A DNA stretch of 64,000 nucleotides from Escherichia phage 121Q. Below the pieces are notes generated by a model, which saw only the letters and a program-made list of their open reading frames with translations, was not told where the DNA came from and made no database searches. Of this stretch, positions 28,425 through 29,162 are shown piece after piece. How positions within the stretch are numbered: position 1 is the stretch's first letter; every line of letters starts with the position of its first letter. The DNA lies in sequence record NC_025447.1; one strand, 5' to 3'. The translations under genes were made by a program, and so were the position numbers.

Positions 28425-29162
28425 TTAGACTGAATTGTTAGGATAATATCTCCCACGTCCCCATATTATTCGCACAGCACCACCACCAGCAGCCGTATAA
28501 GAAAAATTATCCCATATACTACCACCACCACCATACATCTTACCAGCACCACCACTACCAGCACCACCATTATATGAACCATCGTATCTACCGCCAATAC
28601 CATTAGCACCTTGAACAATGATACCAGTACCACCACCCGTACCAATGAACGAGGTATTATAGAATGCACCACCACCACCGCCGCCGCCAGCACCATTTTC
28701 ACCAGTGATTGCATCTCCGTTACCACCTTTACCAGTGTAGCCACCAGCACCACCACCAATGACTGCACCACCACTTACACCAGCGTTGCCCCCATTACCA
28801 CCACCATCATTAATAGCGTTAGCAGCTTTCCCACCTAGTCCACCAACCCTATATTCACCAGTGAAGCTAACACATAGTTTTTCAGTTCCACGATATAAAC
28901 CGTTTTCAACTGCTGTAGTAGTGTTGGGATGTGTAAGAGAAACACTTAAGTACTCACCACTAGTAACCGGAATATTATTACGCCACGATAAGCCGCCACC
29001 AGCACCACGTTGACCACCCGGCGAAATAACACATACTGATATTTCGGTAACGCCAGCAGGAACTGTAAATTGTGTTGTTCCTATTGTCGTGATTAATTGT
29101 TCACCATCTGGCTTATATTCAATTTTATTCCCGTACTTTACCATTCTTCCAAAAGGTAACAT
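28425..29162 (-). CDS. glycine-rich protein carrying the family leader
   Basis: MLPFGRMVKYGN leader then Gly-rich low-complexity body (GGAGGYTGKGGNG, G7 run) instead of RCC1 repeats. Confidence 0.7.
   Translation of the reverse strand: MLPFGRMVKYGNKIEYKPDGEQLITTIGTTQFTVPAGVTEISVCVISPGGQRGAGGGLSWRNNIPVTSGEYLSVSLTHPNTTTAVENGLYRGTEKLCVSFTGEYRVGGLGGKAANAINDGGGNGGNAGVSGGAVIGGGAGGYTGKGGNGDAITGENGAGGGGGGGAFYNTSFIGTGGGTGIIVQGANGIGGRYDGSYNGGAGSGGAGKMYGGGGSIWDNFSYTAAGGGAVRIIWGRGRYYPNNSV

Follow-up and report, generated by a model that had tools for sequence, protein, structure and literature searches.

A glycine-rich gene of Escherichia phage 121Q shares a conserved leader peptide with candidate accessory virion proteins of Rak2-like jumbo phages

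Introduction

Escherichia phage 121Q is an Asteriusvirus – a jumbo coliphage of ~350 kb – and belongs to the Rak2-like group, which takes in the Asteriusviruses, Pectobacterium phage CBB, and Cronobacter phage GAP32 (PMC5259590). The stretch of its genome considered here (64,000 nucleotides of NC_025447.1; hereafter the window) contains an array of minus-strand genes (21089..35291), in which eleven genes – ten RCC1-like and one glycine-rich – begin with the same short leader and a further member is degenerate and broken. The region shares 83–97% DNA identity with Asteriusvirus jumbo coliphages such as SP27, G17, phAPEC6, and PBECO4. Our subject is the glycine-rich gene (28425..29162), which has the leader of its neighbors joined to an unrelated body.

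Here, we describe the reading frame, homology, and predicted fold of this gene, together with the array and the leader. The gene is translated, the leader is best seen as a peptide module, and the product is probably a minor component of the virion. The assignment of the frame, the predicted fold, the modularity of the leader and its selection as a peptide, and the array breakpoints come from our own analysis; the association with virions comes from published proteomics of relatives.

Results

The glycine-rich gene

The gene occupies 28425..29162 on the minus strand and encodes 245 amino acids and a stop codon, and no other frame is free of internal stops. It opens with MLPFGRMVKYGN and continues into a sequence in which 70 of the 245 residues (28.6%) are glycine, with 46% glycine between residues 121 and 200, the motifs GGLGG, GGNGG, GGAGG, and GGGGG, and a run of seven glycines at residues 159–165. 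The original prediction, made from the sequence alone, had noted a start shared with the neighboring genes, GGxGG repeats, and a seven-glycine run, and these features all hold; the same twelve leader residues are present on ten further minus-strand genes with starts from 23431 to 35255. The ATG at 29162 has the sequence AAGGAGG 5 nt ahead of it. An alternative start for the open reading frame (ORF) at 29180 (MNKGGSM...) is unlikely, because it falls within the TATAAT and ribosome-binding site (RBS) of the upstream cassette described below.

SP27 encodes a protein 100% identical to the glycine-rich protein, and 14 further Asteriusvirus records encode one with 94–99% identity. Orthologues of the gene are present in 16 Asteriusvirus records and absent from PBECO4, and in the unverified CMSTMSU record the gene is split by apparent frameshifts. 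The poly-glycine run (28668–28688) is G7 in the window and in most orthologues and G6 in phAPEC6, the homocodon run having gained or lost a codon without a change of frame.

The glycine-rich frame is translated

Three other-frame ORFs lie across the gene, one in the +1 frame (28466..28774, minus strand) and two antisense (28611..28838 and 28759..29013, both plus strand), and the original prediction had flagged them as possible compositional shadows. This is what they are, and none is a gene. They are rich in valine (40 of 102 residues, 39%), threonine (26/75, 35%), and proline (20/84, 24%), respectively, because they are frame-shifted or reverse-complement readings of GGT, which supplies 51 of the 70 glycine codons and, when repeated, is read as GTG, ACC, or CCA elsewhere. 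Among five orthologues, the ratio of nonsynonymous to synonymous polymorphism (pN/pS) in the glycine-rich frame is 0.53, the lowest of the six frames; values in the other five range from 0.64 to 1.38, with 1.38 for the valine-rich +1 frame and 1.34 for the remaining sense frame. The G+C content at the first, second, and third codon positions of the glycine-rich frame (55, 58, and 22%) has the signature of a gene in an A+T-rich phage.

The phAPEC6 GenBank record (MK817115.1) implies the opposite assignment, since it annotates the valine-rich shadow ORF as gp004 and omits the true glycine-rich gene; on that view the real gene would be among the other-frame ORFs, and the glycine-rich frame would be a pseudogene or an untranslated compositional artifact. 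These ORFs do remain open in most orthologues, but only because GGT repeats give no stops there, and phage BF17 has a stop codon within the one at 28611..28838. The pN/pS values in the two other sense frames set against that of the glycine-rich frame, and the RBS, family leader, confidently predicted fold, deep homology, and invariant non-glycine residues that the latter possesses, together with the observation of peptides from the CBB orthologue (see below), make this assignment exceedingly improbable. The glycine-rich frame is a genuine, translated gene.

The public phAPEC6 annotation also lacks two full-length leader/RCC1 ORFs (at 2434 and 6063) in addition to the glycine-rich gene (7325–8059), and because these three proteins are missing from the annotation they were undetectable in the published virion proteome.

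Homology and predicted fold of the glycine-rich body

A direct Pfam hmmscan of the glycine-rich protein finds no family even at E ≤ 1, and searches of Protein Data Bank sequences with the protein or with its family profile give no match, so that fold comparison alone links the body to solved structures. The protein matches PHROG 4474 (unknown function) at 2e-69, and a large protein search returns 197 homologues at E ≤ 1e-3, mostly stand-alone proteins of 240–300 residues encoded on phage-sized contigs, many of them with PF21722 (Gly_rich_2). In a family alignment of 78 sequences (the query and 77 homologues), PF21722 is matched by 26 (best E 3.8e-13), and these match the glycine-rich protein at E values of 1e-6 to 1e-17. 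The glycine-rich protein is a divergent relative of PF21722 by a link that is transitive and structural, its own score lying below the gathering threshold, and it resembles that family in its conserved glycine motifs, its typical stand-alone size (~240–280 residues), and its occurrence in large tailed phages. It is an ordinary, though divergent, representative of an established family of phage domains; wherever it is annotated it is labeled hypothetical, and at least one genome has the annotation wrong.

Residues P35, A139, Y142, W234, and P241 are invariant across the 78 sequences, and L58, N62, I64, V66, P68, S203, and R231 are kept in at least 90% of them. They fall among conserved blocks (GQxxFTxxGTxxWxVPxGVTSI, GGGLxWRNNIPVTPGE, DGGGNGG, GGGAGGYSGNGGNG, and GAVRIIWGxGRxFP), and such blocks with invariant non-glycine residues indicate a real domain family rather than low complexity.

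An AlphaFold2 model built on the family alignment without the CBB sequence has a mean predicted local distance difference test score (pLDDT) of 93.9 and a predicted template modeling score of 0.89, with residues 1–15 at pLDDT 50–74. All segments lie on the minus strand. The leader, codons 1–12 (MLPFGRMVKYGN; 29127..29162), is predicted as a flexible tail (pLDDT ~50), and is followed by a linker of residues 13–19 (KIEYKPD; 29106..29126; pLDDT ~74), with the first β-strand beginning at residue 20. Residues ~20–105 (28848..29105) are modeled as a TNF-like β-sandwich, and residues ~106–228 (28479..28847), which include the G7 run, as a polyglycine-II bundle with pLDDT 96–99. DSSP reports hardly any regular structure in this bundle, which is what polyglycine-II helices should give. 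Motifs invariant across the family in this part are DGGGNGG, GGGAGGYxGxGGNG, GxGGGGGG, GSGG, and YGGG. The closing strand and tail (GAVRIIWGRGRYYPNNSV; 28428..28478) contain the invariant or nearly invariant R231, W234, G235, and P241, and in the model strand 229–234 rejoins the β-sandwich. The body is thus predicted with high confidence to be a TNF-like β-sandwich carrying a polyglycine-II helix bundle. This fold, and the match to PHROG 4474 where the neighbors match PHROG 4219, bear out the original proposal that the body is unrelated to RCC1.

The viral structure library BFVD gives 84 matches at E ≤ 1e-3; many carry the name glycine-rich domain-containing protein, and the matches include a 265-residue protein of the Rak2-like Erwinia phage pEa_SNUABM_47 (TM-score 0.75). 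The closest solved relatives of the domain are the ends of tail fibers and tail 'brush' proteins; the same fold is seen in Pam3 gp24 (7YPX), in the 'wing brush' gp33 and tail spike gp29 of Bxb1 (9D93), and in the ligand-binding domain of ALK/LTK (7LIR, 7LRZ). In Pam3 gp24 the glycine-rich and TNF-like domains recognize the host receptor, while a separate N-terminal helical domain docks the fiber to the baseplate (PMC9608196). The domain binds a receptor or ligand in both Pam3 and ALK, and by analogy with Pam3 gp24 the glycine-rich protein may bind a receptor too.

The array and its cassettes

All ten leader-bearing neighbors have an RCC1 Pfam match or are paralogous to genes that do, and they match PF00415, PF13540, PF25390, and PHROG 4219, none of which is matched by the glycine-rich protein. 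The array bodies are 18–29% identical to one another, and the residues invariant among the RCC1-like paralogues are M1, L2, P3, F4, R6, M7, Y10, G11, N12, and P15. DNA identity between the glycine-rich gene and its neighbors is 92% over nucleotides 1–36 of the coding sequence (CDS) and 28% from nucleotide 37.

Nine genes, including the glycine-rich gene, are preceded by a unit consisting of a hairpin (GCCAGTAC-loop-GTACTGGC) with a T tail, the element GTATTAAATATAGTATAAT, AAGGAGG, and the ATG. The 31-nt core formed by the promoter and RBS occurs in nine copies in the window, all within the array, where none is expected by chance, and the original placement of the glycine-rich gene inside the array behind the same cassette was therefore correct. 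Its own cassette contains the A/T-rich promoter-like element (GTATTAAATATAGTATAAT) and RBS (AAGGAGG) at 29163..29197 on the minus strand, an exact copy of the 31-nt sequence, and begins with the intrinsic-terminator hairpin of the upstream gene (AGCCAGTACAAAGTACTGGCT and a T-rich tail; 29207..29227, minus strand), which has a 9-bp stem with five GC pairs. A second hairpin (GCCAGTACTTGATACTAGC, with one mismatch; 28399..28417, minus strand, although listed on the plus strand by the hairpin scan) lies just past the glycine-rich stop codon and is likely both the terminator of the gene and the start of the next cassette. Hairpins of the GCCAGTAC...GTACTGGC type with T tails are enriched in the window (20 terminator-like sites vs 6.4 ± 2.3 expected), and in G17 the corresponding positions are annotated as terminators. 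Because hairpin loop lengths differ, the conservation of the cassette is underestimated by ungapped identity ahead of the ATG, and motif searching is the better measure.

The cassette has no σ70 −35 hexamer at 16–18 nt and is not picked up by a σ70 promoter scan, which shows no enrichment over the window (76 vs 73.8) and is uninformative. TTAAATA is present within the cassette, and the first array gene is preceded by GGTAAATA (35257–35291). The CBB authors noted ATAAATA upstream of structural genes in CBB and GAP32 and read it as a T4-like late promoter. Because TTAAATA and GGTAAATA resemble this motif, the array genes are likely to be expressed late. Across the Rak2-like phages, operon-first leader genes (including CBB_552 and CBB_553, and those in L012, L013, L018, L019, and L022) have an GGTAAATA(C/T)-type motif upstream.

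The array gene at 23431 has the leader and lacks the cassette. At 24731–25910 (minus strand), a 4-nt ATGG duplication breaks an RCC1-like gene into two ORFs, of 68 and 341 residues; the orthologues in phAPEC6 (gp006) and G17 (G17_00078) are intact with 391 residues, and the split gene is either a pseudogene or a sequencing error. The twelfth member (21089–22241, minus strand) starts at 22241 with a degenerate leader (MLPFGRIITSSKKN, lacking YGN) and reaches a stop after 74 residues, leaving the rest of its RCC1-like body as a separate ORF (21089–21985); a bidirectional hairpin is present at 22286–22309.

Array variation among Asteriusviruses

Gene order and content differ in every array compared. 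When this array is aligned by BLAST to the G17, PBECO4, and phAPEC6 arrays, the homologous blocks have both their boundaries in the cassette plus leader, which is also the one stretch that adjacent blocks share. The slot of the glycine-rich gene is filled in PBECO4 by a different, frameshifted RCC1-like gene, with homology to the window ending exactly 36 nt into the CDS, and the gene downstream of the glycine-rich gene differs among the window, phAPEC6, and the pair formed by G17 and metagenome contig L029. The leader is also homogenized within genomes: in L040 and L071, two Asteriusvirus-like arrays from metagenomes, most genes have MLPFVRMFDYGN, and the orthologous bodies in the window have MLPFARMVKYGN. 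Gene conversion across cassettes would fit this pattern, as would co-evolution with a shared binding site, and the two may act together.

Breakpoints at the terminator-promoter-leader cassettes are consistent with shuffling mediated by these cassettes. The closest described phenomenon is that of the PeSL cassettes of T4-type phages, in which repeats that combine a stem-loop terminator with a promoter lie on either side of non-essential genes within a variable region (PMC2839356, PMC4122927). Differences between related phages map to recombination between PeSL motifs, much as the array breakpoints map to cassettes. However, PeSLs carry strong early σ70 promoters, whereas the array cassette lacks a −35 element and resembles the late ATAAATA, and the array repeat continues past the start codon, its last part being translated as the leader.

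The original prediction suggested that cassettes had mediated the capture of an unrelated body. The modularity of the genes and the breakpoints at cassettes agree with this proposal; an origin of the fusion in this array is not supported, because leader-tagged glycine-rich proteins are found outside Asteriusvirus, as in CBB, a member of another genus (Mimasvirus), where CBB_144 is leader-tagged outside any array. The body may have arrived by cassette recombination or already fused to its leader.

The leader is a peptide module

Across the Rak2-like phages the leader follows the pattern M-L-P-F-x-R/Q-(M/L/I)-(V/I/L/F)-x-Y-G/A-N. IMG/VR and a metagenome collection were scanned for it with degenerate back-translations. 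About 25 of 82 metagenome pattern matches are chance occurrences in ORFs of <60 residues and were excluded, and four more singleton ORFs of >100 residues look unrelated; all real matches lie in Rak2-like phage contigs of 354–378 kb or in partial sequences of such phages. With four Asteriusvirus arrays added, the scans yield 110 distinct leader ORFs of at least 100 residues, and their bodies form at least eight families unlinked by BLAST, including RCC1-like proteins (69), several LamG/ConA-like groups (PF13385), glycine-rich proteins (7), and Kelch propellers. Models predict no structure for the leader, whether it precedes the glycine-rich body or the body of an RCC1 paralogue (residues 1–14); the model of the paralogue, made from nine window sequences, is moderate (pLDDT 64) and is used for those residues only. 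In most leader proteins a Pro-rich linker follows (IAPxP in the RCC1 paralogues), and positions 13–18 of the 110 ORFs are dominated by I, A, and P.

Distant glycine-rich proteins also have the leader, namely CBB_144, which begins MLPFSPLIVYGNKIAPYQ, and the metagenomic P0003, P0004, and P0016. CBB_144 (L003 9001–9765) stands alone between the anaerobic ribonucleotide reductase genes nrdD and nrdG, without a cassette and far from the structural modules and the other leader genes. Two patterns and inspection identify 11 leader genes in CBB (CBB_144, 247, 536, 537, and 548–554), which have unrelated upstream DNA and no hairpin-promoter cassette. Their leader codons vary (TTA/CTT, CCA/CCT/CCG, TTT/TTC, TAC/TAT, and GGA/GGG/GGT) while M-L-P-F...Y-(G/A)-N is kept, which argues that the leader is selected as a peptide.

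Within 121Q itself the first 36 nt of the paralogues are 86–97% identical with very few synonymous differences, and this, with the homogenized leader variants and the array breakpoints at cassettes, could be taken to mean that the leader has no role as a peptide and is kept as a repeated DNA or RNA element, through gene conversion or optimized translation initiation, with the glycine-rich gene having gained it by recombination. We consider such an origin highly unlikely. It is at odds with the CBB genes, which keep the residues with different synonymous codons and share no upstream sequence, with the synonymous variation at P3, Y10, and G11 across the 110 ORFs, and with the gene at 23431, which has the leader without the cassette; neither would a nucleic-acid role explain the enrichment of leader proteins in virions (P = 2e-8; see below). 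The idea that the shared leader is merely a consequence of the cassette fails on the same CBB evidence. On these sequence comparisons, the leader is a selected peptide module that is older than the array, and not a by-product of a DNA cassette.

In a neighbor-joining tree of glycine-rich bodies the MLPF-type members are not monophyletic, a hint that leader and body may have been joined more than once; the tree is unbootstrapped, places CBB_144 on a long branch, and is treated as a lead only. Most other glycine-rich homologues begin M-(L/I)-E-(L/M/T)-L, and in those of other large phages (P0005–P0036, PVP-SE1 gp19 at L004 5998–6840, and L026 8134–8799) the N-terminus is M-(L/I/F)-E-(L/M/T)-(L/M). 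This M-x-E-L-L type of N-terminus may represent a comparable tag system used by a different lineage of phages. A search for such a leader beside the glycine-rich homologues of two other large phages gives only a hint: on a 150-kb phage contig, a 221-residue gene whose start lies ~1.9 kb ahead of the glycine-rich gene has the N-terminus MNEMMIVSA and matches LamG below threshold (E 0.018).

Leader proteins in virions

Electrospray ionization tandem mass spectrometry of purified CBB particles detected 55 of 554 ORFs, including CBB_144, the glycine-rich orthologue, with five peptides and 34% coverage (PMC5259590). Nine of the 11 CBB leader proteins (144, 247, 536, 537, 548, 549, 551, 552, and 553) are in this published proteome (hypergeometric P = 2.4e-8). 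All six structural proteins present in CBB but not in GAP32 (144, 247, 536, 537, 551, and 552) carry the leader, and it is this set of six that the CBB authors singled out when seeking components of the tail 'whiskers' (PMC5259590). In GAP32, gp1 is RCC1-like, has the leader MLPFSRIIQYGN, and is a structural protein by mass spectrometry. Eight proteins detected in phAPEC6 particles (gp003, 005, 006, 007, 009, 010, 549, and 551) are listed as DNA-condensation or hypothetical proteins (PMC7247149), and the six that fall in the stretch of phAPEC6 covered here (gp003 to gp010) map to leader-bearing RCC1-like genes.

The main rival to an external docking role is that the leader is a capsid-targeting or propeptide sequence in the style of the T4 internal proteins, taking its bodies into the prohead to be packed with the DNA, possibly ejected, and perhaps cleaved by a prohead protease. 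The T4 capsid targeting sequence, which directs proteins inside the head and is cleaved after (L/I)-x-E, is a documented precedent, and the two are alike in that ~10–12 N-terminal residues common to unrelated, virion-associated proteins would set their incorporation into the particle. The protease sites of phiKZ-type phages are S/A/G-x-E, and A-P-E just past the leader in several paralogues resembles them. The phAPEC6 authors, moreover, proposed an internal, DNA-organizing role for the RCC1-like proteins (PMC7247149). However, A-P-E is absent from most paralogues and from the glycine-rich protein, and a search of the 110 leader ORFs for a conserved protease site of T4 or phiKZ type after residue 12 finds no Glu-containing motif that is kept. 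The bodies have lectin- or adhesin-type folds (glycine-rich, as in tail-fiber ends and 'brush' proteins, LamG/ConA-like, Kelch, and RCC1) and so look like surface binding domains, the Pro-rich tether is typical of displayed domains, and both CBB and 121Q have external hairs. An internal destination thus appears unlikely.

A further alternative is that some factor in folding or assembly (for instance a phage chaperone), or a modifying enzyme, recognizes the leader, and that attachment to the virion is left to the bodies. The fiber chaperones gp57A and gp38 are known in T-even phages, and GroES-like proteins are encoded by the Rak2-like phages. Glycine-rich fiber ends do need dedicated chaperones, as Pam3 gp25 illustrates (PMC9608196). 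Propellers, jelly rolls, and polyglycine bundles are, however, unlikely to use one folding pathway, and no chaperone gene accompanies the array. Attachment by the bodies would also require every unrelated fold to have its own means of binding the virion, and a common tag is the more parsimonious assumption; we judge this alternative to be quite improbable.

Discussion

We favor, as the probable reading, that the glycine-rich protein is a late, minor virion protein whose leader mounts an adhesin-type glycine-rich domain, one of an interchangeable, lectin-like set. The flexible leader would dock the protein onto a common site on the virion, making it a minor component of the particle, and the glycine-rich domain would be displayed as an accessory adhesin or ligand-binding module, by analogy with its structural relatives. 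In the Asteriusviruses the unit of exchange would be the gene with its terminator hairpin, promoter, RBS, and leader, and recombination between these repeats would reshuffle, add, and remove bodies.

Several observations weigh against this reading. The Asteriusvirus glycine-rich protein itself has never been detected, the searchable phAPEC6 annotation having contained the shadow gp004 instead, and the Kelch leader proteins CBB_550 and CBB_554 were not detected in CBB particles. Mass spectrometry of particles does not tell outside from inside, and some identifications rest on one or two peptides. Gene conversion would account just as well for the near-identical leader DNA of this genome. The glycine-rich protein reaches no Pfam threshold itself, its connection to PF21722 being transitive and structural, and Pam3 gp24 requires a helical trimerizing shaft and a chaperone, neither of which is evident here. 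The action of the leader as a docking element, its site on the particle, and the binding of a host ligand are all inferred.

In architecture, the glycine-rich protein differs from Pam3 gp24 in that it lacks the α-helical shaft and an adjacent chaperone gene, and a 12-residue leader and 7-residue linker stand in place of the docking domain. The gp38 adhesins of S16/T2-type phages (polyglycine-II sandwich; 6F45) are likewise small, separately encoded glycine-rich adhesins, with the N-terminus on the fiber and variable loops displayed (PMC9608196, PMC13243192). For the leader, a close parallel is provided by the secondary receptor-binding proteins in the branched systems of the Klebsiella phages KP32, K11, and KP34, in which a short conserved N-terminal docking peptide on unrelated bodies allows interchangeable modules to occupy one virion site (PMC13352976). 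Those belong to another phage group, with another sequence and one or two partners rather than 11 or more, and docking in the Rak2-like phages is proposed by comparison. The system described here appears to vary two known principles, the docking peptides of modular receptor-binding proteins and the shuffling of regulatory cassettes. The MLPF leader is not described in the searchable literature, including structural work on Rak2-like phages, and the leader system seems to be previously undescribed.

More broadly, it is an evenly balanced question whether the Rak2-like jumbo phages possess a general 'address tag' system, in which the MLPF-x-R-h-h-x-Y-G-N peptide plugs changeable lectin-like modules (RCC1, Kelch, LamG, and TNF-like/polyglycine-II) into a common virion socket, possibly the hair-like fibers of CBB and 121Q, with the Asteriusvirus repertoire diversified by cassette recombination.

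In public annotations of related phages, the RCC1-like paralogues go by a variety of names: DNA condensation protein, regulator of chromosome condensation, S-layer protein, Ig domain-containing protein, and X-linked retinitis pigmentosa GTPase regulator. The leader, the virion association, and the lectin-like company of these proteins suggest that such names are misleading, and our findings argue against the inherited chromosome-condensation annotation. The leader accounts for the appearance in virion proteomes of about a dozen 'DNA condensation / RCC1' genes, of Kelch and LamG genes, and of the glycine-rich gene, and provides a simple rule for predicting accessory structural proteins in genomes in which >80% of the genes are of unknown function. 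If it is a docking peptide, it would mark the proteins of a variable layer that serves in adhesion or decoration, with candidates among them for the hairs, so far unexplained, of CBB and 121Q, and would offer a short tag for the display of foreign domains on jumbo-phage particles.

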